DNA from: Candidatus Heimdallarchaeota archaeon
GTDB taxonomy: Archaea; Asgardarchaeota; Heimdallarchaeia; Heimdallarchaeales; Heimdallarchaeaceae
DNA length: 16,907 bases
Assembly (NCBI GenBank): GCA_019057815.1
Contig: JAHLWR010000038.1
Coordinates: 1-16,907 of the forward strand
Direction: 5' to 3'
How positions within the stretch are numbered: position 1 is the first letter of the stretch; each line of letters begins with the position of its first letter. The notes beneath the pieces were generated by a model. It had not been told where the DNA came from, did not search any database, and saw nothing but the letters and a program-made list of their open reading frames with translations. Made by a program: the position numbers and the translations under genes. Shown here in pieces: positions 48-12,630 of this stretch.

Positions 48-94
48 CCTCTATCGCGTGCGGCGACTCTTCAGAACACTTGCTGAAGGGGGTG
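45..94. ncRNA. Candidate structured RNA element (three-way junction), possibly the 5' leader of the minus-strand gene
   Basis: Stems CACCC 45-49/GGGTG 90-94, TCGC 54-57/GCGA 63-66 and CTTCAG 69-74/CTGAAG 83-88. 35/60 G+C in 41-100 versus 14/60 in 121-180. Confidence 0.4.
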
Positions 95-188
95 TGAGAG
101 TGTAAAAGGCTTATTGCGGAAGTACTATTACCATAGAAAAGGTTAAAAAGGGAAATTTTTTTTTAGAACTAATTAAAAGGTGATTAAA

Positions 189-365
189 ATTCCTACAATT
201 GTTGACGAATCATGTTGCGTTGGTTGTGGCGCTTGCGTAGATGTCTGTCCAGAAGATGTCTATGAGTTAATAGATGATATAGCTAAAACGGTTAACAAAG
301 ACAACTGTACTGATTGTGGTTTATGTATAGATGAGTGCCCCAGTGAGTGCATTGACTTTGAATAA
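189..365 (+). CDS. fdx: 2[4Fe-4S] dicluster ferredoxin (start ATT 189, or GTG 180 as in the ORF track)
   Basis: Two CxxCxxCxxxCP motifs (CVGCGACVDVCP, CTDCGLCIDECP); acidic, ~58 aa; AGGTGA at 178-183. Confidence 0.93.
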   Translation: MPTIVDESCCVGCGACVDVCPEDVYELIDDIAKTVNKDNCTDCGLCIDECPSECIDFE

Positions 366-379
366 ACTAGTTAAACTAC

Positions 380-399
380 TTTTTTCTCTTTTTTGTTCC
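380..399 (+). terminator. Oligo-T archaeal terminator of the ferredoxin gene
   Basis: T-rich tract (TTTTTTCTCTTTTTTGTTCC) starting ~15 nt after the stop. Confidence 0.55.
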
Positions 400-483
400 T
401 TTGATCCTAATATGTGTTATTAAGTCTAATTAAAATTCGGGAAAATATTTCTCCTTCCCGTTATCTATTGTTTATGTGACATA

Positions 484-520
484 ATAAAAAAAGAAAGAGA
501 GATTTTGTTTTTTTCTCTTT
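484..520 (-). terminator. T-rich terminator of the 741-aa gene with a weak hairpin
   Basis: Minus strand after the stop reads AAAAGAGAAAAAAACAAAATCTCTCTTTCTTTTTTTA. Confidence 0.5.
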
Positions 521-2746
521 TTATAATAGTGGTTTTGACATACTCATAGCATTTCCTGTAATTAAAAATGACACAGCTTCAGCGAAGTTTGTACTTTGAG
601 ACATGAAACCTACTACTTCTCCTGTTGCTTCATCCGTTGCTGCTATTAGCACTTCTTCTTTTTCCCTTCTAACACCAATGAATTTTGGTGTGTCAGGTCC
701 TTCTCTTAATACTCTTATTTTCACATTTGCTTGAGATTCCAGAACATCAGCTACCCATGGATCTCCTTTGTTTACACTTGTCACTATGGTTATTTGTACT
801 GTACTTGAAAGTTCTTTTATTGCAGCTATTGGTATATATTCCTTTTTAGGTGACATTATCGTTGTATTGTTCTTAGTAGCTTTAATTATTCGTGCAATAT
901 GATCCATAACAGCATCTATTCCTATAATAGTTGATGTTCTAATTTGTAGTGCAGACACTTGTTTTGATGTTGCCTCCAGAGTTTTAAAATCATTACTTAG
1001 AGATTGAGTAGTGCTTACTAAACTATTTGATAATGTATTCAAATATTTCTCTGATTCCTCAACGTAGTTTTTCGCTTCGTCAACTTCATTTCCTAAGCTA
1101 CCAGCTATAAGAGTTCTATTTTCCTGCAATCCTGCCTTAGTTGTTTCTACAATAGAGCTAGCTGTATTTATCATTGAATCAACGCTTTGTTGCAAGAAGT
1201 TACTTAAGTCAGCAGAGAGTGTAGTAATTGTGTCGTTAAGATTGTTTATAGATTCTTGTGTCTGTTCAACTATTTTTGTTTCCTGTTCAGAGAAAAGTTC
1301 ATCAAGATTTTGTACTTGTTGTTTCCATTTCTCATCTACGGTAGTATGATTACGATCCAAACCTTGTGTAATTGTTTCATCAATCTGATCTGTAAGCGTT
1401 TTGAATGATGCTCTAAACGAATTTATACCTTCAACTATACCAGTTGTATTCTCATTAAGTTCTGATGTTAGATTTTCTCCAAAAACCCCAAATCTATTTA
1501 TTGCTTGCTCTCTTATATTTTGGACTATTTGTTTATAATTAGTCAAGGTTTCATTAAAATGGGCTTCTAGTTTTTGATTGAAAACATCTCTCTCACTGAT
1601 TAGATTATTTTTCTGCGTTTGTTCATCATTTTGAAACTCAGTGAATTTTATTGCCATCTTGTCCTTAATTCCAGTTATTGTAGAATAAATTGCAGAGTTT
1701 TTATTTTCCACTAATTCGTTTATCGCTTCTTCTTTTACTTGATGTAAATGATTACTCATCGAATCAATTGCTTCTTGAAGTTTTGTTGAAAAATTCGTTA
1801 CTTTATTATTTAGAATGGTGCCTAGTTTACCATTTAAATCTTCAAGAGATGTAGAAACAACATCCGAAAGCTGATCTATTGTTTCCCCTGCTTTTCTTGA
1901 TACAATAGAAGAGAATTCCAAATTTTTCTCTGTTTGAGCTTGATTAAATTCTCTTACATCTATTTTTGTTTTATCAATATCAGTTTCAAGTAAACTTGCA
2001 ATAGAATCAACTTCATTAGTATAAGACTCTGTTAATTGTTCCATTTTTGATTTGATGGTAGATGATACAACCTGGATTTTTTCAATCGATTGTGTAGAAC
2101 TCTGTTCGACTTTTGTTTTAGCTGATTGTATTTGTGTTGCATTAGATTGTTTAATATCAGAGATTGTATCACTTAGGTTGTTTTGGAATTCTACCATGTT
2201 GGATTTAATATCGTCAATAGATCCGTTCATAGAAGATATAATTGAAACTTTCTGTGTTTCTTGTAAGGATGTTATGTTATCTTTAAGTTCATTTGATTTT
2301 CTAGATAATTCTTCATCTTGTTGTTTATTGCTATTTTGTATATCTGTAGTAAACTGGGTAAATTTAGCATCTATTTCTGTGCCCTTTTGAGAGACAGAAT
2401 CTGTTAACTGAGTTCTTAAACTGTCTACAATTGTATGAAAATTAGTTTTTTTCTCTCTTAAGAACGTTGAAGATTCCTTTAAATGTTCTCTTATTTCATT
2501 GCTCATTTTTTCGCTCGATTCTCCCAAATAATCTAGAGGAATTCTACAGTAATATTTTTCTATATATCCTTCTGAAAATCCAGCTGCTCCCTTTGCAGCT
2601 AATCCTTCTAAAGCTTTTTGAACTATAGAATAATGTAAATTTCCGAGACTACAGATTTCAATTGCTGTTAATTGCCCATAACCCAAAAGAAGTTGGTAGA
2701 TCTGCTTTTCTTCCATAGTCATTTCTAATCTTTCAATAAACGACAT
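521..2746 (-). CDS. TrmB-like winged-helix protein with a ~530-aa hendecad helical/coiled-coil insert and a C-terminal TrmB/PLD-like alpha/beta domain
   Basis: N-terminus EEKQIYQLLLGYGQLTAIEI...ALEGLAAKG...KYYCRIP fits the TrmB wHTH pattern. C-terminus IIGIDAVMDHIARIIKATKNNTTIMSP...QITIVT...NVKIR...EKEEVLI fits the TrmB effector domain. GGTGA at 2758-2754. Confidence 0.8.
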   Translation of the reverse strand: MSFIERLEMTMEEKQIYQLLLGYGQLTAIEICSLGNLHYSIVQKALEGLAAKGAAGFSEGYIEKYYCRIPLDYLGESSEKMSNEIREHLKESSTFLREKKTNFHTIVDSLRTQLTDSVSQKGTEIDAKFTQFTTDIQNSNKQQDEELSRKSNELKDNITSLQETQKVSIISSMNGSIDDIKSNMVEFQNNLSDTISDIKQSNATQIQSAKTKVEQSSTQSIEKIQVVSSTIKSKMEQLTESYTNEVDSIASLLETDIDKTKIDVREFNQAQTEKNLEFSSIVSRKAGETIDQLSDVVSTSLEDLNGKLGTILNNKVTNFSTKLQEAIDSMSNHLHQVKEEAINELVENKNSAIYSTITGIKDKMAIKFTEFQNDEQTQKNNLISERDVFNQKLEAHFNETLTNYKQIVQNIREQAINRFGVFGENLTSELNENTTGIVEGINSFRASFKTLTDQIDETITQGLDRNHTTVDEKWKQQVQNLDELFSEQETKIVEQTQESINNLNDTITTLSADLSNFLQQSVDSMINTASSIVETTKAGLQENRTLIAGSLGNEVDEAKNYVEESEKYLNTLSNSLVSTTQSLSNDFKTLEATSKQVSALQIRTSTIIGIDAVMDHIARIIKATKNNTTIMSPKKEYIPIAAIKELSSTVQITIVTSVNKGDPWVADVLESQANVKIRVLREGPDTPKFIGVRREKEEVLIAATDEATGEVVGFMSQSTNFAEAVSFLITGNAMSMSKPLL

Positions 2747-2798
2747 GTTTTTTTCACCAATTTTAATTATTGAAGACTCCTTAAATTAAAGGATTTTT

Positions 2799-2814
2799 AA
2801 TCTTTCGAAAGATT
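2799..2814. promoter_or_regulatory. Perfect 16-bp palindrome AATCTTTCGAAAGATT overlapping the putative BRE/TATA of the 741-aa gene
   Basis: Exact self-reverse-complement. Minus strand reads CGAAAGA-TTAAAAA ~50 nt upstream of the ATG. Confidence 0.6.
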
Positions 2815-2947
2815 GGTATTTTTACACAGTTCACATTTTTGATATCTAAAAAATCAGCAGATTGTAAAATAAGACAAAGATAAAGATAAACAAGTTTAAG
2901 AATCATATTTAACTTATACAATTCATCATTAATTCATCGGTAGAAAA

Positions 2948-3571
2948 ATGGTAGAATACGAAATTGTATCTTGGGATCAAAGTTATCAGATGACATTTTA
3001 TCTATTCCAAAAAATAGCTGAAAGTGGGTTTTATCCTGATGTTATTGTTGGGATAGCTAGGGGAGGATGGATACCTGCCCGACTATTAGCAGATTTTTTT
3101 GGCAATAAAAGAACAGCAAATCTTAAGATTGAATTTTACGATAACACTACTAGATCTACAGATGAACCAATAATAACCCAAGAAATTTCTGAAAATGTTG
3201 AAGGTAAAACTGTTTTAATTGTAGATGATGTGGCAGACTCAGGAAAGAGTCTTTCTGCAGCCATCAAACATATAAAAGTAAAAAAACCTTTAGAAATGAA
3301 ATCCGCCACATTGTACTACAAGAAACATAGTATCATAAAACCGGATTATTATATTAAAGAAACAAAAAATTGGGTTGTTTACCCTTGGGAAACAGGAGAA
3401 ACAATTAGTTTTCTTTACAACAAATTAAAAGATAAGAAGTCCCCAAAGGAAATAAAGAGCTATATCAAAGATATTGGTATTGGTTCACCACTTGTAGAAG
3501 CATATTTCTCTCTAATCCTTGAACAAGAGAAAAGGAATGATTTAAATGGAAGAAAAAGATGGAAACGCTAA
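2948..3571 (+). CDS. Type I phosphoribosyltransferase, purine salvage (hypoxanthine/xanthine/guanine PRT-like)
   Basis: VIVGIARGGWIPARLLAD; PRPP-binding VLIVDDVADSGKS; KPDYY...WVVYPWE. Confidence 0.9.
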   Translation: MVEYEIVSWDQSYQMTFYLFQKIAESGFYPDVIVGIARGGWIPARLLADFFGNKRTANLKIEFYDNTTRSTDEPIITQEISENVEGKTVLIVDDVADSGKSLSAAIKHIKVKKPLEMKSATLYYKKHSIIKPDYYIKETKNWVVYPWETGETISFLYNKLKDKKSPKEIKSYIKDIGIGSPLVEAYFSLILEQEKRNDLNGRKRWKR

Positions 3572-3848
3572 CGAATTATTAGATAATGAAGTTCTTGAGA
3601 GAGTTAATATTGGTGTTGTAGCTGTATCACTAAGCATGTATGATGAAGGCATGACTTTAGAAGAACTAGCTGAAGTTACAGGAATCAATGAAACAAGTGT
3701 AAAAGATATTTTAGGGGTTCTAGCGAAGAAAGGAATGGTTAAGAAAAAAATCACATCTGACGTTTATATCGTGATTAACTTCAAAAAATTGCTCCACTAT
3801 CTTGTTGAAAGTGGACTAGTTTTTCCAATTAGTGACTTAAAACAATAA
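3546..3848 (+). CDS. Small winged helix-turn-helix protein
   Basis: GMTLEELAEVTGINETSVKDILGVLAKKGMVKK...VY is a typical wHTH pattern; overlaps the PRTase 3' end by 26 nt. Confidence 0.8.
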   Translation: MEEKDGNANELLDNEVLERVNIGVVAVSLSMYDEGMTLEELAEVTGINETSVKDILGVLAKKGMVKKKITSDVYIVINFKKLLHYLVESGLVFPISDLKQ

Positions 3849-3853
3849 TTCAT

Positions 3854-5392
3854 TCAGTTAAAGAACTTCTCTAATGAAGCTTGTGAGGGCTTTTTCTTTT
3901 TATCTTTTTTTCCTTTTGTGTCTTTCTCTTTTAATACAGGGGGTGTTTTCTCTGTTTTTTCTAGTTCAGGTTTGGTTTGAGAGAGATCCTTTGTAGAAGG
4001 GGTTTGAAGTAGCGCTTTTGTTTGTTTTATTCCTTTCTTTTTGGGTTTCTTTGTAAAGTCTAATATGTTTATTGGTTTTACTTCTTTAGCTTCTCCTATC
4101 CATGCTTCAGCCATCTGTTGATATGCCAGCTCATAGTGTTTCATTATTTCTTGAGTAACCTTATTAGAACCACCAGTTAGAAAGTCAACATCATCTTGAT
4201 CAAATCTAAGCCATACTGCAATCCCTGCAGCCATTCTGGGATCAGTTCGAAAAATTATTCTCAAATACGGATAGATATCATTTTCAAACAATTTTGTTGA
4301 GCTATGAAGTTTTTGTGCAGCTTTATCTGACATTTTTTTTATCTTAGCCTTTCTCACCCTGAATTTTCCCATTAATCCCCAATAACTAGGAAAACCGAAA
4401 TTAGAATATTTAAAGGAAGATTCTTTTACCAAACCAACTGATGATATGAATTGAAAAAAGTATTTTAGAAACTTCCATTCTTGTTTGATATAACATTGTG
4501 AAAGATAGAAATCGGCTTCTGAAATAAGCTCGTACATATTAAGAGTCTCTTCATTATTTGCTGCTTGTTTATATGCGTGCTCATAAACATACATCAACAG
4601 CTCTCTGTAATCAAGATCAGCACCTTCTATTGCTCTTTTTGCAGATTGTAGATCCTTGGCCATGAAAATGTTGGTAAGAACTTGATTCAAATTTTGTTCT
4701 TGATTTCGGGGTGAAAACGTGATATCTTCAAAGGTTGCACTAAAAGCTACTCCTTCTAAATCGTTAATAGCTGAACGCGCATCTCCATGTGAATTTGTTG
4801 CTATTTTTGCTAAAATATCTTCAGTTATAGAAAGACTTTCCTTTTTTATTATTCTTTTAAGCAGAGTCAAAATTTCATGATCCTTCAATCTTTCAAAATT
4901 AAAAACCCGCATAGATTTCTTTGCTGCTTTAAGAGCGGCAGCTTTAGGATCATTAGCAGTACATATTATAGGTATACGTGCTCTTTCAACAACTTTAGCA
5001 AGAGCTTTTGCTCCACCTCTATCTTCATTCCCGAATAGACCATCAGCTTCGTCAACAAGTATTAATTTTTTTACTCGAGCGCCTTGTAGAACAGTTCCTT
5101 CCGTAGATGATAATCCTACAGTTCTTTCTATAGCTTTCTTATTTCTTTTATCGCTAGCGTTTACCTCAACAAATTCAAAACCATACTTATTAACAAGGTA
5201 TAGAACGACACTTGTTTTCCCTACTCCAGCAGGTCCTGAAAGCCAAGCAGTTTTCTTTCTCTCTTGTTTCCAGTTTTTAAGCCAACCCTCTAAGGCCCTA
5301 ACTTCAGCTATGTTACCTACAAAGTCTTCAAAGGTTTTTGGTCTGTATTTTTCAACCCAAGGGATGGTTATTGAGGAACTTTGCAAAGCCAT
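3854..5392 (-). CDS. rfcL: Replication factor C large subunit
   Basis: PWVEKYRP, Walker A GPAGVGKT, EVNASD, Walker B ILVDEAD, GDARSAINDL and C-terminal PIP box QASLEKFF. ATG 5392 preferred because TTTTTTATAT (5430-5421) suggests a leaderless mRNA. Confidence 0.95.
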   Translation of the reverse strand: MALQSSSITIPWVEKYRPKTFEDFVGNIAEVRALEGWLKNWKQERKKTAWLSGPAGVGKTSVVLYLVNKYGFEFVEVNASDKRNKKAIERTVGLSSTEGTVLQGARVKKLILVDEADGLFGNEDRGGAKALAKVVERARIPIICTANDPKAAALKAAKKSMRVFNFERLKDHEILTLLKRIIKKESLSITEDILAKIATNSHGDARSAINDLEGVAFSATFEDITFSPRNQEQNLNQVLTNIFMAKDLQSAKRAIEGADLDYRELLMYVYEHAYKQAANNEETLNMYELISEADFYLSQCYIKQEWKFLKYFFQFISSVGLVKESSFKYSNFGFPSYWGLMGKFRVRKAKIKKMSDKAAQKLHSSTKLFENDIYPYLRIIFRTDPRMAAGIAVWLRFDQDDVDFLTGGSNKVTQEIMKHYELAYQQMAEAWIGEAKEVKPINILDFTKKPKKKGIKQTKALLQTPSTKDLSQTKPELEKTEKTPPVLKEKDTKGKKDKKKKPSQASLEKFFN

Positions 5393-5491
5393 GATGGTTA
5401 AATAAATCAACAATATTTCAATATAAAAAACATGTGGATACTAAATCAGTAAATTATACAAAAAAGTGTAAAGATTGGAATATTTAATTTG

Positions 5492-6106
5492 TTACTCTTC
5501 TGAACTTGTATCATCTACTTTTTCTTTTCTAAACAACATTTTGCCTAAAATACCTCCAATTGCTCCTCCAACAAGTCCAAGAATTATTACAAAGATGAAA
5601 GAGCCTACGAACAAAGCGATTAGAAATGTTACAATGAAGAGAGGAAAACCACTCATACCAGCTTCACCCGACTTAATAGAAGCGGTTAGCACAGCAAATA
5701 GAAAATCTAGAAAAATGAATGACCAAATTGCAGAAGACATTCCAGATTTTAATCCACCTCTTGAAGCTAACCCGCCCACAAAAGCTCCAATAAGCCAAAT
5801 GAGAAGTATTAGGAAATATAAACCAGCATGTCCACTAAAAGACGAATTAAGATTGTATTCTTTCAATAATGGAATTGGCAATGGTATGTCAAAATTGAAT
5901 GGTATAAATAAATTTACAACTACTAACATTAGTAAAATTATCCATAAATGACCAGCAGCACCAGCTTGTTCTACTAATGCTGTATTTGCATCTTTTACTG
6001 CTTGTACATCTATGGTTGGCCACAGAATTAGCATCAAACCAACTATCACGGTTGTACAAGTAGTAAAACCGATGAGGGTACGTTTCAAATGTTTAAACAA
6101 AAACAT
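5492..6106 (-). CDS. Multi-pass membrane protein with GxxxG-rich helices (DUF5518-like, tentative)
   Basis: About five to six hydrophobic segments; WLIGAFVGGLASRGG and GLVGGAIGGILGK; charged tail. ATG 6106 preferred over 6133 (TAAATATT at 6140-6133). Confidence 0.75.
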   Translation of the reverse strand: MFLFKHLKRTLIGFTTCTTVIVGLMLILWPTIDVQAVKDANTALVEQAGAAGHLWIILLMLVVVNLFIPFNFDIPLPIPLLKEYNLNSSFSGHAGLYFLILLIWLIGAFVGGLASRGGLKSGMSSAIWSFIFLDFLFAVLTASIKSGEAGMSGFPLFIVTFLIALFVGSFIFVIILGLVGGAIGGILGKMLFRKEKVDDTSSEE

Positions 6107-6200
6107 AACACTCAATATAACATAGCATATCAAATATTTAGAGTTTTGCTTTCACCTTTGACATTATTTGATGAAGGAATTTGTTCTATATGTGACCTAT

Positions 6201-6956
6201 TTAAAATATAAGGGACAAACAAGTTAAAGCTCCCTCACATTTTTCGAATTCACTCATATCTAGAGATAATACCTCAAAGCCTGTTTCTTTTACCATCTCT
6301 ACGACATTTGGAAACTTGGTAGACATAACGACTGCACCTTCAATTATCAAGCAATTTGTTGCGTAATATTCCTCATTTGGTACAACTATTGAGTAGAATT
6401 TTTCGAGGCAAGGATGATTCTGGTAAGCCATTGTGACAAGAATGGTTTTCTTCCCAATATAATTCACATAGCTTTTGAGGTGTACAATGGTATTATCGAT
6501 AATTGTGTCAACTTGCACCTTCAACCAAGATCGCATTTGAGCTACTCCTTCCATATTTGTTCTCTGAGTGACTCCACTGATTAAATGAGATGGCAAATGA
6601 ATAACATCTCCACCTTCTATAGTTGCAGGAGAAAAAGCTCTTTTAATATCAAAAAACTCATCTAATAGCTTTTCTACTTCAAAGTCTTCTCCTCTTCTAC
6701 TCTCTTTGGCCATTCTTGTTACAAATGCTCTTTTTCCTTGAACCACAGCAGTGTCTTCAACAAAACATGCATCAGGTTTACCATCTATTGGAAGTAACTT
6801 TATCACTTCAAGCCCAAGATTGGATAAAGTCTCACAGTAGTTATGGTGTTGCTTCTTTGCTTTAGATATATTGAGAGTATGATGAAGTGGATGGCTAGAA
6901 ATACATTTTCTATAGTTTTTTCCTGGTTCTCTAACTATAGCACATTTAGCTTTCAT
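6201..6956 (-). CDS. Dimethylarginine dimethylaminohydrolase / amidinotransferase (pentein) family enzyme
   Basis: PDACFVEDTAVV, RRGE, IEGGDV, VHLKS, EFEKCEGALTCLS; catalytic His and Cys present. Confidence 0.9.
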   Translation of the reverse strand: MKAKCAIVREPGKNYRKCISSHPLHHTLNISKAKKQHHNYCETLSNLGLEVIKLLPIDGKPDACFVEDTAVVQGKRAFVTRMAKESRRGEDFEVEKLLDEFFDIKRAFSPATIEGGDVIHLPSHLISGVTQRTNMEGVAQMRSWLKVQVDTIIDNTIVHLKSYVNYIGKKTILVTMAYQNHPCLEKFYSIVVPNEEYYATNCLIIEGAVVMSTKFPNVVEMVKETGFEVLSLDMSEFEKCEGALTCLSLIF

Positions 6957-7023
6957 TCTTCCACATAATTCTTTCTGGGATTAATTTATATATTTAGCTC
7001 TTTTAATTGCACATGGATATCTA

Positions 7024-7854
7024 ATGGTACTTATAGGTCAAACTCTTCAAGCACATAAAGGCTTAACAACTGAACACCTTCTACGTTTCACTCGTCTTCT
7101 TGGATTTGAATTATGTGAAATTAACCCAGCTGGTACATCGTTAGAAAATGTAGATAAAATCATCCCTCTTGTAGGTAATATGCCACTAACTTTTCACCTT
7201 CCAATAAAAGGTATTGAAAATTTTGAATTTGCACAACCAAACAAAAAAGATGAAATCAAGAGTGTAATTAAACTAATAAATAATAATAAAGAGGACTTAA
7301 ATCTGATTTTGGGGGTATTTCACCCTCCAGAAGCTGAGAATGGAAACCTTAAAACATTAATTGAAAATTTGAGTCAACTTGATATTAAATTGGTTGTAGA
7401 AAATGTTCCAGATTATACTGATAATGAATTTCTTGAGATTTATAACACGCTTAAGGATCATTTAGGTGAACAGCTAAAAGGGTGGTTGTTTGATGTCGCA
7501 CATTCCTATTTAGTGAATGGTCCTTCAAATTTTATGGAAATTCTAAATATTCTTCCTTTTAAAGAACTGGAGGAAATTCATCTATCTGATTGTCTTGAGG
7601 ATCGTGATGCGCACTACGCCTTTGGAGCTGGTGTTTTGCCAATAGACGAGATTTTAAGAGAAATTAAAGACAGGAAATATGACAAAATTATTGTAAATGA
7701 AATAGATGCTTATCCCTCGATTTGGAGTGTAATTGACTCATACAGAATGGTTGCAAAATTATTCAAAAAAAGCCTTTATAGAAAAGTAACATTCCGATAC
7801 AGACTCGTAAAACCACTCATTCAAAAAAAGTTGAGTAAAGCTGGCATCTCCTAA
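7024..7854 (+). CDS. Sugar phosphate isomerase/epimerase, xylose isomerase-like (AP endonuclease 2) TIM barrel
   Basis: TFHLP, VFHP, VVENV, FDVAH, IHLSD, DAH...GAG, VNE metal-binding pattern. Confidence 0.85.
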   Translation: MVLIGQTLQAHKGLTTEHLLRFTRLLGFELCEINPAGTSLENVDKIIPLVGNMPLTFHLPIKGIENFEFAQPNKKDEIKSVIKLINNNKEDLNLILGVFHPPEAENGNLKTLIENLSQLDIKLVVENVPDYTDNEFLEIYNTLKDHLGEQLKGWLFDVAHSYLVNGPSNFMEILNILPFKELEEIHLSDCLEDRDAHYAFGAGVLPIDEILREIKDRKYDKIIVNEIDAYPSIWSVIDSYRMVAKLFKKSLYRKVTFRYRLVKPLIQKKLSKAGIS

Positions 7855-7857
7855 AGT

Positions 7858-8127
7858 TCATTTTTTACCAACATTAGATAAGATTTGAAGAGAGAGATTA
7901 ATCCATCTCAGGTATGAATTCATGGCTGCTCGTGCAGATACCGAATCTTGAGCAATTATTATAAGTATAAGTTGTTCATCTTCTGTACTCAAACGGACAG
8001 ATGCCCTGTCATTTGGATTATAAGTTGTTTCCAAGTTTAACGCATCAAATAAGAGTTTACTAACATGTCTGCTCTCAAGTTTTATCTTCATAACTAGTTC
8101 AATATCACTAATAAAATTTGAGACCAT
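7858..8127 (-). CDS. pcc1: KEOPS complex subunit Pcc1
   Basis: AQDSVSARAAMNSYLRWI motif, size, and conserved position after the Brix gene. GTGA 5 nt before ATG 8127. Confidence 0.88.
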   Translation of the reverse strand: MVSNFISDIELVMKIKLESRHVSKLLFDALNLETTYNPNDRASVRLSTEDEQLILIIIAQDSVSARAAMNSYLRWINLSLQILSNVGKK

Positions 8128-8151
8128 TTTATTCACTTTATCAATGTATAA

Positions 8152-8709
8152 CTATAATCCATTTTCTATCCTTCTAGGAACAATCCTCAACTTGATTCTA
8201 GGACCTGTTTGTTGATTGTCTTTATCCAAGAATTCAACGAAAATCAATCCTTCCTCTTTGTCTAAATAATCAGCATAAACGGTAACATAATCGTGTTTTT
8301 CTAATTTACTTATATCTTCAGTTGTTGTATTGAATAACCTAGAAATAATTGTTTCTTCTTCAGAGTTGTTTAATGACGATATCAAGAGTGAAAACCTTGG
8401 TGACCTCCCTTCTGATTGTTTTCCATACTCTCTTGAGAGGGTAGATCCCCGAATTTTAATAGCATAAGGCAATTCGTGAGGTGAATCAACAAGATTAAAA
8501 ATACGAAGGAAATTAGGATTTCCTTTTATGGAATTTATTATTACAGCCGTGGCGCAACCTTGACTTTTTATCATTCCAAGAGAATAAGAAAGACGACTGG
8601 AGCCTCTAGTAAAGCGAGATGACCTTGGTACAACTTTTATAATGTCGTGAATGAAAGAACGAGTCTTTTTTGCTGGATTGCGTGATGTTGTAAAGCTAAT
8701 TCTTCTCAT
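8152..8709 (-). CDS. Brix-domain (Imp4-like) ribosome biogenesis protein
   Basis: TTSRNPAKKTRSFIHDI, RG, KGNP, GPRIK; superoperon context. GGTG at 8720-8717 before ATG 8709. Confidence 0.88.
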   Translation of the reverse strand: MRRISFTTSRNPAKKTRSFIHDIIKVVPRSSRFTRGSSRLSYSLGMIKSQGCATAVIINSIKGNPNFLRIFNLVDSPHELPYAIKIRGSTLSREYGKQSEGRSPRFSLLISSLNNSEEETIISRLFNTTTEDISKLEKHDYVTVYADYLDKEEGLIFVEFLDKDNQQTGPRIKLRIVPRRIENGL

Positions 8710-8752
8710 CAATATACACCTATCTCACTGAACAATAAAAAGTTGACTGGTC

Positions 8753-8777
8753 TTTATATTCAACCTATAGCTATAGG
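8753..8777 (-). promoter_or_regulatory. Putative Brix-pcc1 promoter: AATATAAA box preceded by the 14-bp palindrome CCTATAGCTATAGG
   Basis: Perfect palindrome at 8764-8777; AATATAAA at 8760-8753 on the minus strand. Confidence 0.5.
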
Positions 8778-8889
8778 ATATGCAATTAAGGAAGGAGAAA
8801 AAAATTGAAGGTTTACTTTTTTCTTTGAGTATATAAATGAAATTTAACATGTATAAACAATCTTTCAAAGTGTAAAGAGTAGTTGTGAG

Positions 8890-9171
8890 TTAAGCATTCT
8901 CTTTCAATGCTTCTGAAATACGAGTAATTCTACGTAACATGCTTTTACCAGCACTTGTAGTAGGCTCCCAAGCCCCTCCGGCTCTCTTTTCTCCGCAGGT
9001 TTTACAAGCCCATATTCCAAGTCCATCTCTAATGAATGTCGGTTTAAAACAAATTGGACAGCGATAAGAAATCTTACTCTTTTCCTCTATTTGTCTTACC
9101 CTTTTTCTGATGGTACTTCCATACCTGGCACCATAACGACCAGTTGAACCTACTTTCTTAGTACGTCCCAA
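8890..9171 (-). CDS. rpl37ae: 50S ribosomal protein L37Ae (eL43)
   Basis: RTKKVGSTGRYGARYG, CPIC...GIWACKTC...AGGAW; TTG start 6 nt after GGTGA (9182-9178). Confidence 0.97.
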   Translation of the reverse strand: MGRTKKVGSTGRYGARYGSTIRKRVRQIEEKSKISYRCPICFKPTFIRDGLGIWACKTCGEKRAGGAWEPTTSAGKSMLRRITRISEALKENA

Positions 9172-9202
9172 ATCCTTTCACCACGATTTGAAATCTTAGC
9201 TC

Positions 9203-9211
9203 TATTTATAA
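9203..9211 (-). promoter_or_regulatory. Putative TATA box of rpl37ae
   Basis: TTATAAATA on the minus strand 32-40 nt upstream of the start. Confidence 0.55.
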
Positions 9212-9255
9212 GAGTTATTGTTTTTAACAGAAATTAATCATTGAAATCTAAAACA

Positions 9256-9280
9256 TAAAAATAAAAAAATAGAAAAAAAG
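9256..9280 (-). terminator. Oligo-T terminator after rrp42
   Basis: Minus strand CTTTTTTTCTATTTTTTTATTTTTA just after the stop. Confidence 0.55.
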
Positions 9281-9292
9281 AATGATTCTTTT

Positions 9293-10105
9293 TCATTTAG
9301 AAGGTAGTGCTTTCATTAGCTCTTTTCTCAGACCTTTGGATATTTCTAAAGCTTGTTTAACTATTGGCATAACTTCGTCAGGTTTGAGTACACCCTTATT
9401 ACCTTTTTGAGCTGAAACGATGTGGTCATCCTCATCAAAGGCAAAAGTTAATCGCATATCTGTAACTCTTTCTTCTTTGAATGTGGGATCCATTAACAAT
9501 TTTTTTCCTATTCGATATGTAGTTACTGATATTGGGTAGTGTTGAATTTCCAATGGAACTTTCTCTTCAAGAACTTCATGTTCGTCTCCAGTAACTTTAA
9601 CTTTTGGTATTTTGGCTGTAGCTAAAGCCGCTATTGATCCTAATACAGCAGCATCAAACAAGTTCCCATCATGATTGAGAATATAAAAGTCTAGGAATAA
9701 TATCCAAACTAACTTTCCAGGGATAACACACAACTTTGCGAAGTCAATGCAATGTGACTCTCTAATTGCTCTATCTGTAACTCTAGCTAATTCTATAGCT
9801 TTTTCTGAGGGTGGTCCACTTTCAAAAAACGGAGAAGCAATAGGAGATAATTCAGCGCCAGTGGTTATAACACCTGAATTGGGTGAATCTGGGAAGGGTG
9901 TTCCTAAAACTAATTTTACCCCCACAATAATTTTTGTATCTCCCAAAGATACAAGTGCTGAACCTTCAGCTTTTTCAATATAATTAGTTTCAATTTCCAA
10001 TGAACGGTATTGAAGAACTTCCCTACCATCAACTCGCTTATTCTGTTCCAGTAGAGCAAGCATATACTCCTTCTCAATTTCGCTTATTATATACTCATCT
10101 GTCAA
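9293..10105 (-). CDS. rrp42: Exosome complex component Rrp42
   Basis: RVDGR, KAEGSALVSLGDT, PFPDSPNSG, ELARVTDRAIRES, DGNLFDA. TTG 10105 follows GAGGTGG (10118-10112). Confidence 0.96.
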   Translation of the reverse strand: MTDEYIISEIEKEYMLALLEQNKRVDGREVLQYRSLEIETNYIEKAEGSALVSLGDTKIIVGVKLVLGTPFPDSPNSGVITTGAELSPIASPFFESGPPSEKAIELARVTDRAIRESHCIDFAKLCVIPGKLVWILFLDFYILNHDGNLFDAAVLGSIAALATAKIPKVKVTGDEHEVLEEKVPLEIQHYPISVTTYRIGKKLLMDPTFKEERVTDMRLTFAFDEDDHIVSAQKGNKGVLKPDEVMPIVKQALEISKGLRKELMKALPSK

Positions 10106-10106
10106 C

Positions 10107-11093
10107 TTAAACCACCTCAGTTTTATCTTCACCTTCTTTAGAAGGTTCTTGTATTGGATTTTCCTTGGACTCCTCAGGAACTTTCTCCTTCTTGGACTCC
10201 TCAGGAACTGGTTTTGGAGCTTTAAGGGGAGGTTCTTCTACTTTTTTTTCTTTATCTTCTTTAATTGTAGATTCTGTCAGTTTTGCATCTTGTTCCTTGA
10301 TGTCTTCCTTGATGTCTTCCTTGATTTCTGTTTTACCCACCAAATTCTCCACTTCAACGGAAACTTCATCTCTAATTTTAATGTATTTTGCCTTTAGAGC
10401 TTCTTTTTGTATCTTATGAATATCAGTACAACCTTTTAGAGATAATTTCAAGGTTTCTTCAAATTGTTCAATAGTAAATACTCCATCAAGTTGCAATAAA
10501 GATATTTCGTCTAATGTAGGGGAATATCCGACTGGGACATCTCCAGAACCTTTTTGATCTTCAATATTATTCAAATCCAAAACAGCAGTATCATTTATTA
10601 AACCACCAGCTACTCCTGCAATTAATCCTTTCATTGGAATACCCGCATCTGCAAGCGCAATTGAAGCTGCTGTTAAACTTGCACAACGTGTTCCACCATC
10701 TGCTTGCAATACTTGGAGGTAAACATCGATAGTTGTTCGAGGATAGGCCTCCACAAATGCTACAGAGTTAAGGGCATTGGCAATTATTGAAGATATTTCA
10801 CGCTCTCTTCTTGAAGGAGCTGGGCTTTTCCTATCACCGACAGAAAAAGTTGACATCCGATAAAAACATTGAATTAGAGCTCTATCTGGTAGAGCTCGAT
10901 GTTTTGGATGTAATTCTCGTGGACCATAAACTGCTGCAATTATAATATTCCTTCCCATTCGTATTTCAGCTGATCCATCGGCATTTTTTAAAATACCAAC
11001 TTTTATGCTTATAGGACGCATTTGATCTAAGTTACGTCCATCTGTCCTTTTACCTTTTTCATCTATTAAAATTTCAGTACCATCGCCTGCCAT
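10107..11093 (-). CDS. rrp41: Exosome complex exonuclease Rrp41 with a ~85-aa charged low-complexity C-terminal tail
   Basis: RTDGR, ADGSA, AVYGPRE, SRREREIS, phosphate-binding QADGGTRCAS, LDL...ED...D; GGTGA at 11102-11098. Confidence 0.97.
   Translation of the reverse strand: MAGDGTEILIDEKGKRTDGRNLDQMRPISIKVGILKNADGSAEIRMGRNIIIAAVYGPRELHPKHRALPDRALIQCFYRMSTFSVGDRKSPAPSRREREISSIIANALNSVAFVEAYPRTTIDVYLQVLQADGGTRCASLTAASIALADAGIPMKGLIAGVAGGLINDTAVLDLNNIEDQKGSGDVPVGYSPTLDEISLLQLDGVFTIEQFEETLKLSLKGCTDIHKIQKEALKAKYIKIRDEVSVEVENLVGKTEIKEDIKEDIKEQDAKLTESTIKEDKEKKVEEPPLKAPKPVPEESKKEKVPEESKENPIQEPSKEGEDKTEVV
10164..10209. repeat. 19-bp direct repeat CTTGGACTCCTCAGGAACT x2, period 27 nt (VPEESK) in the Rrp41 tail
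   Basis: Identical copies at 10164-10182 and 10191-10209. Confidence 0.9.
10293..10325. repeat. 12-bp tandem repeat TTCCTTGATGTC x2.75 (IKED) in the Rrp41 tail
   Basis: Copies start at 10293, 10305 and 10317 (partial). Confidence 0.9.
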
Positions 11094-11110
11094 AATATCA
11101 CCATAATTTT

Positions 11111-11800
11111 TTAACTTTGTTTTTCAGACAAGAAACTTTGTATTCTGTTTGTTAGATTTTGTGTGAAAGCTTCACGTTCAATTTTCTTTATAGCTTCAAT
11201 AGCTCGCAATTCATCCTCTATTTTCTTTCCTTGTATCCAAATTCGTCCATTTTGACCAGTTATTATTTGGGTTCGGGTTAAACGTTTAATCATGTTTATC
11301 ATAGATCCTTTCTTTCCGATTACCCTTGGAATATGAGCTGATTCTATTTCAATTATCCTTCCACCCCTAAGTTTTCCTAATCCTCTTTCATTTGTTACAA
11401 GCGACGGATCCCTTGTTCTATCGAAAGCAAAAATTTTTGTTAATATGATATCTCCTATATCAAAGATTTTTCTAACATCATCATTAACTGAATCAAATCT
11501 TTTTTCTATTGCATTGTTGGCACTTAGTATTGCAATAAATGGACATGCAATATCGACTATCCAAGATGTAAGACTAATCTCAACAACTTTACCTATTACT
11601 AGATCTCCTGGTCTAGGAACATATTTAGCTTTAAGCGCTTTTACTTGTATAAACTCGCCTTTATCTAGAAATAGTCCAACAACCGTCGCAAAGTAGTTGT
11701 CTCCTTCTCTTATGATCCCATCACCATATTTGTAACTACCTTCAGCCAAAAGTACGCCAGGTACAACTATATCGTGGTTTTCTATTAATGTTTTAGACAT
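11111..11800 (-). CDS. rrp4: Exosome complex RNA-binding protein Rrp4
   Basis: IVVPG, YVPRPGDLVIGKV (S1), GLGKLRGG, PRVIGKKGSMI (KH GxxG), GQNGRIWI. GGTGA at 11810-11806 supports ATG 11800. Confidence 0.96.
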   Translation of the reverse strand: MSKTLIENHDIVVPGVLLAEGSYKYGDGIIREGDNYFATVVGLFLDKGEFIQVKALKAKYVPRPGDLVIGKVVEISLTSWIVDIACPFIAILSANNAIEKRFDSVNDDVRKIFDIGDIILTKIFAFDRTRDPSLVTNERGLGKLRGGRIIEIESAHIPRVIGKKGSMINMIKRLTRTQIITGQNGRIWIQGKKIEDELRAIEAIKKIEREAFTQNLTNRIQSFLSEKQS

Positions 11801-11820
11801 ATTTTTCACCGTTATTATTT

Positions 11821-12567
11821 TCATTCTGCCAATCTTTCTAATATTTTAACTTGTGCCTTTCCTTTTGTTCTAGAGGTTATCTGTTCTAAGAAATCTGCTT
11901 GTGTTCCAGATGGAATTTGAATAATTACAGCTAAAGAACCATCTGATAACCATTCTTCTTGCTGTAAATCACCAGCCCCATGGAAAAATCCGTATAAAGA
12001 ACCAGCATAACTGGGTGGGACTTTGATAGCTAACTTTACAGCTTCAAGTCTGATTGGCATAATTGGTTTTAGAAGATTAATTATTTCTAGTGCTTGACTT
12101 TTTGTATCTTCTTTGTAGTGAATGTTTACCCCCAATTCAAGGATTGTATTTTCAATTCTATCCTTAGGAATTGGTGTATTTTCACGAGGGTTGATACAAT
12201 GAATATGAATAAATTCAACAATGTCCCTTCTTTTTTCCTTTTGTATTTCATCCCTCTGATTTTGAGTCAGCTGTAATTTACCCTCTTTCAGGATTTTAGC
12301 AGCTATCTCACGTTCACTGAATCCTTCACCAAAAACGACTACAATATCGTCATCTGTAGCTTTCTGCCCTCTTGATATATTTTCATAAACGTCATAAGTT
12401 TCAAAAATATCATCGAGTTCAACTTCTTCTCCTTGAATAAAGAGCCAAGCAGGTTCGGGATTAACAAGTAATTCAAACCGTCTTCCATGAGTTTCCAAAC
12501 GAACAATAGATTTTCCACTTAAGTCTATTCGTTTATCACGAACACCACTAGCAAAATCTCGTGACAT
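11821..12567 (-). CDS. sdo1: Ribosome maturation factor SBDS/Sdo1
   Basis: GRRFELLV, ILKEGKLQLT..QR, INPRENTP, WLSDGSL; directly upstream of rrp4. ATG 12567 preferred over GTG 12576. Confidence 0.95.
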   Translation of the reverse strand: MSRDFASGVRDKRIDLSGKSIVRLETHGRRFELLVNPEPAWLFIQGEEVELDDIFETYDVYENISRGQKATDDDIVVVFGEGFSEREIAAKILKEGKLQLTQNQRDEIQKEKRRDIVEFIHIHCINPRENTPIPKDRIENTILELGVNIHYKEDTKSQALEIINLLKPIMPIRLEAVKLAIKVPPSYAGSLYGFFHGAGDLQQEEWLSDGSLAVIIQIPSGTQADFLEQITSRTKGKAQVKILERLAE

Positions 12568-12630
12568 AAATAACACACTCTACATAGATAGTTTACTCAT
12601 TATAGCTTACTGCGATATATGAGAAGTCAG

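Follow-up and report, generated by a model that had tools for sequence, protein, structure and literature searches.

The window analysed here, a stretch of 16,907 nucleotides at the start of contig JAHLWR010000038.1 from a Candidatus Heimdallarchaeota archaeon, contains a gene whose product combines a TrmB-type winged helix-turn-helix (wHTH) at residues 1–70, a helical region at residues 71–589 and a PLD-like C-terminal domain at residues 604–741 (Table 1). All 28 genomes searched in its family carry an orthologue, one copy each, and the start MSFIERL is kept across all orthologues. Purifying selection acts on the gene, its dN/dS being 0.23 over the whole length when measured against an orthologue that is 94% identical. 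The protein as a whole has a pI of 4.8. An antisense ORF inside the gene, 2052–2390 (+), was rejected as spurious, an open frame being its sole support. The phosphoribosyltransferase (PRTase) gene and the small wHTH gene that diverge from the 741-aa gene (2948..3848) are regarded as context only.

Table 1. Features of the rod-protein locus (positions in the window; residues refer to the 741-aa protein).
Feature	Position	Strand	Remarks
Whole gene	521..2746	(-)	741 aa; stop codon 521-523; single-copy as orthologue
TrmB-type winged helix-turn-helix, residues 1-70	2537..2746	(-)	Pfam PF01978 and family profile matches
Rod arm 1, residues 71-246	2009..2536	(-)	Variable-sequence hendecad amphipathic helix; AF2 helix 71-274, pLDDT 70-87
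Central conserved rod module, residues 247-407	1526..2008	(-)	Motifs IDxTKxDVRAFN and ISERDxFxQKLEAHY; AF2 confidence low at ~270-387
Polar interruption 1, residues 279-289	1880..1912	(-)	Conserved; no core hydrophobics; AF2 helix break 275-280
Polar interruption 2, residues 372-381	1604..1633	(-)	Conserved, QNxEQTQRNN; lowest periodicity amplitude; AF2 helix break 375-384
Rod arm 2, residues 408-589	980..1525	(-)	Hendecad amphipathic helix; AF2 helix 385-589, modelled antiparallel packing on arm 1
PLD-like alpha/beta domain, residues 604-741	524..937	(-)	Equivalent to N-subdomain of TrmB effector domain and to TrmBL2 C-domain; protein ends here
Phosphoribosyltransferase, divergent neighbour	2948-3571	(+)	Adjoins orthologues wherever upstream flank recovered
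Small wHTH protein, divergent neighbour	3546-3848	(+)	Adjoins orthologues wherever upstream flank recovered

The N-terminal domain matches PF01978 with 25.9 bits when the whole protein is used and with 29.9 bits for residues 1–110 (cut-off 25.6), and the same Pfam family is matched by 22 of 24 superfamily members. The N-terminal family profile retrieves TrmBL2 (5bpd; E 5.8e-15) and TrmB (3qph; E 3.1e-11). An amphipathic helix follows the wHTH directly, starting at residue 71, and the profile alignment enters the helix of TrmBL2, reaching residue 102. By profile alignment only, Val42-Gln43 are placed opposite the recognition-helix Tyr-Asp (Tyr50, Asp51) of TrmBL2/TrmB; the recognition Tyr50 that is a feature of the sugar-sensing TrmB/TrmBL1 is by this alignment absent, with Val in its place. 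The dN/dS of the wHTH is 0.10 against the same 94%-identical orthologue, and its pI spans 5.1 to 9.4 across orthologues. DNA binding by the heads is predicted but not assured, since the protein is acidic, the wHTH pI is variable and the recognition Tyr is replaced by Val.

The C-terminal domain was modelled by AF2 with a pLDDT of 93.2. Its top Foldseek match is 2f5t (E 2.9e-8), and in VIA comparisons it matches TrmB 2f5t with a Z of 14.6 (rmsd 2.5 Å over 129 aa) and TrmBL2 5bpd with a Z of 13.6; PLD-fold Nuc/FAM83 proteins are matched as well. A Foldseek search with the full model returned nothing informative beyond the C-domain. At the sequence level six of the 40 members match PF11495, the strongest with an E of 1.3e-6, and a single one matches PLDc_2 (E 0.13). 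The HKD motif, HxK(x)4D, is absent: in the 40-sequence C-domain alignment no His column is invariant or close to it, and the nearly invariant positions are occupied by P, N, R, E and E. The domain aligns to TrmB residues 110–242 only and the protein then stops at residue 741; therefore the sugar-binding barrel of TrmB (described in PMC4158304 and PMC4877046) is absent, and the sugar-binding subdomain with TrmB residues G320/E326 is not present. An earlier note on this DNA, made from the sequence alone, had proposed a TrmB-type N-terminus and a TrmB/PLD-type fold at the C-terminus, and both assignments are borne out by these matches.

The two domains are joined by an exceptionally regular helical rod. 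Prolines occur at residues 70, 633, 639, 663, 684, 687 and 739 and none lies within 71–632, so that the proline-free stretch from ~70 to ~630 described previously is real; this freedom from proline is genus-specific, ~90% of the orthologues having a Pro at 233 and another near 600. Over residues 76–625 the hydrophobic Fourier spectrum peaks at 3.68, with a power of 10.29 at exactly 11/3 (mean of the shuffle maximum 1.03, 95th percentile 1.43) versus 0.08 at 3.5, i.e. no heptad signal, and all five sub-segments tested peak at 3.66–3.68. When the sequence is laid out in 11-mers, hydrophobic residues fall at positions a, d/e and h over ~50 repeats, in a near-continuous register (local phase ~-35 degrees at 87–220, ~0 at 237–315 and ~-75 at 375–570). 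The 11-residue repeats that the earlier note had read in one stretch are thus genuine and hendecad rather than heptad, but their extent had been drawn too narrowly, as they occupy the whole 72–590 region.

The length of the rod is fixed. The spacing between P70 and P633 is 563 residues, without indels, in 38 of 38 orthologous sequences with identities down to 22%. Within the rod, conservation is highest in the module at residues 247–407, whose dN/dS of 0.08 (94%-identical orthologue as reference) about equals that of the wHTH and whose centre, residue 327, lies close to the rod midpoint at residue 330. Under a pairing i+j=660 the two polar interruptions, 279–289 and 372–381, are mirror partners. 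An HMM of residues 250–405 gave no reliable matches in other subfamilies.

In the AF2 monomer model (pTM 0.30) the rod is folded as an antiparallel hairpin, with arms of pLDDT 70–87, helix breaks at 275–280, 327–332 and 375–384, and a putative tip at which pLDDT drops below 50. VIA superposes this model on the Maxi antifreeze hairpin (rmsd 2.8 Å, 196 aa, model residues 171..482) and on chemoreceptor 2ch7 (302/309 aa, 72..588); both arms are also spanned by the matches to the Smc arm 5nnv (161..499), the CHMP4B hairpin (72..584) and PrgA (92..566). An MI covariation scan of the variable arms placed the antiparallel pairing i+j=660 at the top of 236 pairings (Neff ~15) with a z of 3.0, which is about the expected maximum of 236 trials and notable only because it coincides with the value predicted. 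After smoothing, the test for symmetry of conservation is non-discriminating: the best antiparallel sum, 654–660, has an r of 0.73, and the parallel-shift control of 314 equals this optimum with an r of 0.72. Weak symmetric optima are seen in other subfamilies (819 vs 820, 1234 vs 1229 and 729 vs 710), and a U-shaped profile arising from conserved rod ends would trivially yield such optima. Neither a conserved Gly nor a conserved Pro marks a turn at 320–345 in the orthologues, and the amphipathic periodicity runs through the midpoint. Two-copy complex prediction for residues 230–430, based on an 18-row alignment, returned ipSAE values of 0.01 and 0.08 (mark 0.42), which weigh neither way. Together, the model and the covariation peak weakly suggest a fold-back of the rod into antiparallel arms, although the modelled hairpin may be an artefact or stand for an antiparallel dimer. 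A single rod of ~80 nm, as envisaged in the earlier note, is not the favoured topology in view of the AF2 hairpin and the covariation peak at i+j=660; that figure presumes a fully extended helix and would be halved by a fold-back. The dimerisation helices of TrmB are themselves antiparallel and domain-swapped, pairing F81/I91' and F84/L88' (PMC4158304).

The protein had been singled out as a candidate for something undescribed. As such it stands, since no already characterised family was found to contain it in the literature searched, but it is no isolated case, being a member of an Asgard superfamily with multiple paralogues, and three further wHTH-rod paralogues are encoded in the same genome. 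No description of the architecture was found in the literature searched, although one may already exist in print. The superfamily comprises 376 clusters with rods of ~220–1856 aa, and all of its named members are Asgard; paralogues in this genome reach ~1,480 aa and relatives reach 2,084 aa. A 908-aa sister subfamily has ~165 extra residues, apparently on the N-terminal side only, and its periodicity peaks at 3.645, close to 51/14; the repeat of Scy is 51 residues long. Between some clades the length differs by 11, 33 or 66 residues (611, 622, 655, 721), and superfamily-wide growth of the rod in multiples of 11 was rejected, as no residue class mod 11 holds throughout. The genes of distant subfamilies have no conserved neighbours around them. 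One relative, P0007, has a precomputed match to PF27974. The family is uncharacterised and Asgard-wide, and it looks structural rather than sugar-sensing.

The identities of the domains, the periodicity, the invariant length, the pattern of conservation and the distribution are read from the data. We tentatively favour, at a confidence that stays somewhat short of probable, a TrmBL2-type architectural DNA-binding protein that is neither catalytic nor sugar-binding and carries an antiparallel-paired hendecad stalk; the antiparallel topology, the oligomeric state, DNA binding and the biological role are what we infer. The underlying plan is that of TrmBL2: a TrmB wHTH is followed by an amphipathic dimerisation helix and then by a PLD-like domain that is non-catalytic, and the sugar-binding subdomain is missing; the dimerisation helix has presumably grown by hendecad repeats to ~520 residues. 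The rod halves would most likely pair antiparallel, residue i being in register with 660-i. This could be realised as an intramolecular hairpin, its stalk ~38 nm long and probably joined with a second one in a four-helix bundle, or as an antiparallel homodimer forming a ~77 nm rod with one head per end; either topology would place the wHTH beside the PLD-like domain, as in TrmB/TrmBL2. The 247–407 module would then lie at the apex or on the dyad and might serve self-association or partner binding. The heads may bind DNA, with the rod acting as a fixed-length spacer or scaffold, and the protein would not be a metabolite-sensing regulator. The one-sided ~165-residue extension of the 908-aa subfamily sits poorly with a simple hairpin.

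That same one-sided length difference is more easily accommodated if the rod is an extended homo-oligomeric hendecad coiled coil of ~77 nm whose helices run parallel and in register, with the wHTHs clustered at one end, opposite the PLD-like domains, tethering or spacing DNA from a partner of the C-domain; we consider such an arrangement unlikely. It would fit a periodicity that stays almost in phase over 50 repeats and the lack of conserved turn residues, and comparable long hendecad rods are known in Scy and FilP (PMC9858780). Moreover, only the parallel order would keep the TrmBL2-like pairing of wHTHs; the TrmBL2 helix 'promotes dimer formation' and its two wHTHs are set on adjacent major grooves (PMC4877046). 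The AF2 arms, however, are antiparallel and covariation is highest at i+j=660, and a simple spacer would not carry its most conserved module at the midpoint. The core also speaks against it: two-stranded hendecad coils require small core residues and otherwise give way to higher-order bundles (PMC9858780), whereas here the core residues are large (L/I/F/V) and Ala accounts for only 3–6%, a composition that also counts for the antiparallel stalk.

Membership of the TrmB family would also fit an ordinary sequence-specific transcription factor, autoregulatory or controlling the divergent PRTase/small-wHTH pair, in which the rod serves oligomerisation or the sensing of a physical signal. The divergent pair is kept at all orthologous loci for which the upstream flank was recovered, and a TTGTTAAAAAAGATTCTTA-like element is conserved in the intergenic region that it shares with the gene. 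We nevertheless hold this to be rather improbable. An exact 520-residue rod, with paralogues of ~1,480 aa and relatives of 2,084 aa, exceeds the needs of a regulator, the effector-binding barrel is missing, and distant subfamilies do not have common conserved neighbours. The promoter dyads at 2778–2852 sit in a ~57-nt insertion that is limited to this genus and unique in the genome, and were ruled out as a family-wide operator on that account.

Somewhat more doubtful still, and argued by analogy, is an 11/3 helix of the apolipoprotein, phasin or perilipin kind that would lie on lipid, or on some other surface of hydrophobic character, and tether DNA to a membrane or lipid body, as PhaF and PhaM tether PHA granules to the nucleoid. 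PF01442 (Apolipoprotein) is the strongest Pfam match on the rod, weak PDB sequence matches to apoA-I and apoA-IV and a structural match to phasin PhaP (Z 9.7) were obtained, and exchangeable apolipoproteins are stored in solution as a helical hairpin or bundle. The charges follow an apolipoprotein-like class A layout, K/R making up 13–20% at the flank positions and D/E 24–32% on the far face, although this bias is weaker in other subfamilies. Yet every PF01442 score remains under the cut-off of 90 (56.9 bits here and 87.8 in the best relative, P0084), ~3 large hydrophobics per 11 residues make for a narrow hydrophobic face, proline punctuation is missing, the rod is strongly acidic (net charge -32), and a surface-coating helix would not need exact conservation of its length. 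The protein has neither a TM segment nor a lipidation motif, and nothing points to a membrane anchor. The PHA-granule idea was dropped, as the genome has no PHA synthase scoring above its cut-off.

Known members of the TrmB family are compact regulators that respond to sugar, the exception being TrmBL2, a chromatin protein. The proteins described here define an uncharacterised architecture in which the TrmB dimerisation helix appears to have grown into hendecad rods of ~220–1856 residues, Asgard-only among named members, with a rod length that is exact within each orthologous group and with several paralogues in one Heimdallarchaeial genome. Few natural sets of hendecad repeats are as long and as clean, which should make the rods useful to coiled-coil structural biology. 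Long rods of fixed length combined with a DNA-binding-type head are what would be expected of nucleoid scaffolds, tethers and rulers; the roles put forward in the earlier note (tether, nucleoid organiser or filament) are hypothetical. Going beyond the favoured architectural stalk protein, one may speculate, as a decidedly long shot, that the wHTH-hendecad-rod-PLD proteins are DNA-anchored molecular rulers, each paralogue of a fixed length (~30 to >250 nm across the superfamily), which together make up a nucleoid scaffold or, in the manner of a lamina, a spacer layer in Asgard archaea; in this picture the heads would bind DNA and the conserved mid-rod or apex modules would mediate paralogue-specific self- or partner-binding. 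In Heimdall- and Lokiarchaeota cells DNA and ribosomes are reported to lie 50–280 nm apart (PMC8776820), a separation that such a ruler scaffold, if real, could underlie.

Several known systems share individual traits with this protein. The exchangeable apolipoproteins (PF01442 ApoA1/A4/E; apoLp-III) have in common with it the 11-residue amphipathic periodicity and class-A charges, with sequence matches that are sub-threshold; they are punctuated by Pro and have a wider hydrophobic face, whereas the present protein is cytoplasmic, archaeal and flanked at both ends by domains of DNA-binding families. The antiparallel stalks of chemoreceptors (2ch7, 1qu7), SMC/Rad50 arms (5nnv, 7zr1) and PrgA (6z9l) superpose with the AF2 model over both arms; in these stalks, as in the model, the terminal domains meet at the base, and the midpoint or apex and the arm length are conserved. 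The resemblance is one of general hairpin shape and does not testify to homology. Chemoreceptor and SMC stalks are heptad and carry an ATPase head, a hinge or an MCP signal domain, whereas the rod studied here is hendecad and without those; no ATPase family match to an SMC/Rad50-like ABC head was found in Pfam or NCBIfam.

The actinobacterial cytoskeletal proteins Scy and FilP resemble it in having rods of hundreds to >1,000 residues built almost entirely of hendecads, but possess a DivIVA-like N-terminus and Ala-rich cores (PMC9858780), in contrast to the TrmB termini, large-hydrophobic Ala-poor core and archaeal host of the present protein, which has no Pfam match to DivIVA. TrmB, the sugar-responsive repressor of P. 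furiosus (3qph, 2f5t), is the best structural match of the C-domain through its residues 110–242; it differs by its sugar-binding C-terminal barrel with G320/E326, and its linker is hugely expanded here. TrmBL2, the chromatin protein and global repressor of Thermococcales (5bpd, 5bpi, 5box, 5bqt), has the same domain order and is likewise without the sugar-binding subdomain (PMC4877046). The protein is not a TrmBL2 orthologue, however, scoring 15.3 bits against the NF041141 equivalog cut-off of 530; TrmBL2 has the recognition Tyr50 and a Thermococcales host, where we find Val, an acidic protein and an Asgard host, and the TrmBL2 helix of ~30–40 residues contrasts with ~520 hendecad residues here.

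The minus-strand ORF 521..2746 encodes a protein of 741 aa in which proline occurs only at positions 70, 633, 639, 663, 684, 687 and 739, so that residues 71–632 are free of it. Fourier analysis of the strongly hydrophobic residues in the rod (76–625) yielded a single dominant peak, with a power of 10.29 at exactly 11/3 (maxima of 200 shuffles: mean 1.03, 95th percentile 1.43) against 0.08 at the heptad period of 3.5, and the peak was found at 3.66–3.68 in each of five sub-segments. When the rod is written in rows of 11 residues, hydrophobic residues occupy positions a, d/e and h across ∼50 repeats. The earlier note had proposed a proline-free helix of 11-residue repeats with a period of 3.67 rather than 3.5; this is borne out, and the repeat reaches beyond the stretch parsed there, over the whole 72–590 region. 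Two qualifications apply: ∼90% of the orthologues have a proline at 233 and another near 600, and the register is only nearly continuous, the local phase moving from about −35 to 0 and then to −75 degrees over three consecutive segments.

The same note had suspected TrmB/PLD folds at the termini, and both were recovered. Residues 1–70 score above the Pfam TrmB cut-off, and the N-terminal family profile (24 sequences) matches TrmBL2 (5bpd; E 5.8e-15) and TrmB (3qph; 3.1e-11), the alignment extending into the dimerisation helix. The Tyr-Asp pair important in DNA recognition by TrmB (PMC4158304) aligns to Val-Gln in the rod protein. The last 146 residues were modelled with confidence from a 40-sequence alignment (pLDDT 93.2). 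The top match of this model was the TrmB effector domain 2f5t (Foldseek E 2.9e-8; VIA Z 14.6, rmsd 2.5 Å over 129 aa, TrmB residues 110–242); TrmBL2 gave a VIA Z of 13.6, and the PLD-fold proteins NucT, Nuc, FAM83 and F13 came next. PF11495 (Regulator_TrmB) matches six of the 40 aligned sequences. No conserved His was found in this alignment and the domain therefore has no HKD catalytic motif; the protein stops after the PLD-like domain and thus lacks the sugar-binding subdomain found in TrmB/TrmBL1.

Full-length orthologues are present in all 28 same-family genomes searched. Among 38 orthologous sequences (29 unique, pairwise identity down to 22%) the spacing between the equivalents of P70 and P633 is exactly 563 residues in every case, and no rod indels were found. 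Whole-gene dN/dS is 0.23, calculated against a 94%-identical orthologue. Precomputed annotation assigns one orthologue, P0007, to the recent Pfam family PF27974. In one closed same-family genome (G068:C1:1799374-1801612) the orthologue is broken by in-frame stops (three TGA, one TAG and one TAA), and may represent a pseudogene or sequencing errors.

Conservation along the rod is uneven. The arms (85–245 and 410–570) are variable, whereas conservation is highest in the module 247–407, which is centred on residue 327 near the rod midpoint (330), has a dN/dS of 0.08, comparable to that of the wHTH (0.10), and is specific to this orthologous group. Within it, two conserved stretches of 10–11 residues (279–289 and 372–381) are devoid of core hydrophobics; at both, the periodicity amplitude falls and the AF2 helix breaks, and they mirror each other about i+j=660 (residue i opposite residue 660−i). 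Plotted on an 11/3 wheel, the hydrophobic residues form a narrow seam (two positions ∼60%, two ∼44%) that is mostly L/I/V/F, with Ala at only 3–6%; K/R lie beside it and D/E over the far face. The net charge of the rod is −32.

The full-length AF2 monomer (13-sequence alignment, pLDDT 68.7, pTM 0.30) contains helices at 71–274, 281–326, 333–374 and 385–589, and VIA alignments show antiparallel packing of the two long helices in the model. Known hairpins align across both arms (see the table), and together they place i+j at ∼653–661. In an APC-corrected MI scan of the variable arms (118 antiparallel and 118 parallel pairings) the top rank fell to antiparallel i+j=660, with a z of 3.0 that is about the expected extreme for 236 trials; the peak is notable only because it lies on the value predicted beforehand (∼3% by chance), and this covariation weakly favours the antiparallel pairing. 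The TrmB dimerisation helices pair F81 with I91' and F84 with L88' (PMC4158304) and so cross antiparallel, in a domain-swapped manner. By analogy, a lengthened crossing of this type would produce an antiparallel dimer, each end carrying the wHTH of one chain and the PLD-like domain of the other. An AF2 run on the monomer cannot tell such a dimer from a hairpin formed within one chain; the rod midpoint has no conserved turn residues and AF2 confidence is low at ∼270–387, features that would suit both. An extended parallel rod, although less favoured, would be in line with the 908-aa sister subfamily, in which the extra ∼165 residues seem to be confined to the N-terminal side.

When 1.84 billion cluster representatives were searched with a profile, 376 superfamily clusters were retrieved (E<=1e-3), and in nearly all of the best 150 of these the PLD-like domain is at the extreme C-terminus. 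Where both anchors could be mapped, their spacing ranges from 264 to 1,900 residues, corresponding to rods of ∼220–1856 aa. All members named so far are Asgard archaea (Heimdall-, Kari- and Hodarchaeales, Promethearchaeota and one MAG labelled Thorarchaeota). The homologues retrieved from elsewhere in the phylum (other orders and classes; 638–2,084 aa) all have a period of 3.65–3.68 (power 8–38), with no signal at 3.5. The window's genome encodes two more wHTH-rod-PLD proteins, of 767 and 1,481 aa; the gene for the latter could form a two-gene rod module with the 440-aa ORF directly before it. In a third paralogue of this genome, of 762 aa, the rod extends to the C-terminus and the PLD-like domain is missing. 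The 908-aa subfamily (loci L014 and L015, same order) has a hydrophobic period of 3.645–3.650, not 3.667. This value, near 51/14, suggests that heptads are inserted at regular intervals between hendecads, as in repeats of the Scy/FilP type.

Coordinates of neighbouring genes, paralogous loci and structural matches to the rod model
Feature	Location	Strand	Remarks
Phosphoribosyltransferase gene and 100-aa wHTH gene	window 2948-3848		wHTH TrmB/IclR/MarR-like; overlap 26 nt
Dyad-rich segment, divergent promoter	window 2778-2852		in ∼57-nt genus-only stretch
Housekeeping genes, information processing	window 3854-12576		RFC large subunit, Pcc1 (KEOPS), Brix-like ORF, ribosomal protein L37ae
Further housekeeping genes	window 3854-12576		exosome Rrp42/Rrp41/Rrp4, SBDS
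NTPase, Fpg/Nei glycosylase, M28 peptidase			downstream of housekeeping genes
1,481-aa wHTH-rod-PLD paralogue	G000:C35 (window's genome), locus L059, 2328-6773	−	
440-aa ORF	G000:C35, L059, 6792-8114	−	directly before the 1,481-aa paralogue gene, same strand; Apolipoprotein-like (11-mer) matches
762-aa paralogue	G000:C43, locus L060, 2016-4304	+	TrmB wHTH and hendecad rod, period 3.66
Maxi antifreeze	model 171..482		VIA, rmsd 2.8 Å, 196 aa, across both arms
Chemoreceptor 2ch7	model 72..588		VIA, 302/309 aa, across both arms
Smc arm	model 161..499		VIA, across both arms
CHMP4B hairpin	model 72..584		VIA, across both arms
PrgA	model 92..566		VIA, across both arms

The missing effector subdomain and absent catalytic residues, the exactly conserved length and conserved mid-rod module, the co-occurrence within a genome of several paralogues that differ in length, and the distant subfamilies, in which no conserved operon partners were found, suggest a structural or architectural role: the protein may present a TrmBL2-like DNA-binding-type head on a stalk (38 nm if a hairpin, 77 nm if extended) rather than act as a metabolite-responsive regulator. 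The protein is acidic (pI 4.8), its wHTH varies in pI among orthologues (5.1–9.4) and Val aligns with the recognition position, all of which caution against assuming strong coating of DNA. A lipid-binding rod retains some weight as a rival reading, consistent with the class-A charge pattern and sub-threshold Apolipoprotein matches, although the seam is narrow, the protein acidic, Pro punctuation lacking and PHA synthase not found above its cut-off.

Gene order around the rod gene is largely syntenic across the family, and the PRTase/wHTH pair lies divergently beside it at every orthologous locus examined with the upstream flank recovered. This conserved pair is the sole basis for regarding the protein as a local regulator of the adjacent genes, a less likely reading; against it, the window's promoter dyads fall within an insertion specific to the genus. 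The ∼57-nt stretch in question, unique in the window's genome, is shared with one orthologous locus (L033) and missing from the other orthologous intergenic regions; what is conserved across the family is a TTGTTAAAAAAGATTCTTA-like element, not the dyads.

Databases name the rod proteins only 'helix-turn-helix domain-containing protein' or 'sugar-specific transcriptional regulator TrmB', and no account of the wHTH-rod-PLD architecture turned up in full-text literature searches. Each part is already known; what appears new is the way they are combined and the expansion of the helix by hendecads to a fixed length. Since in hendecads a single core residue points towards the axis of the bundle, dimers such as Scy and FilP use Ala-rich cores, and large core residues otherwise imply higher-order bundles (PMC9858780); the core of the rod protein, in contrast, is mostly L/I/V/F. 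TrmBL2 has the same domain order as the rod protein (HTH, dimerisation helix, C-terminal domain; PMC4877046), but its dimerisation helix is ∼15-fold shorter.
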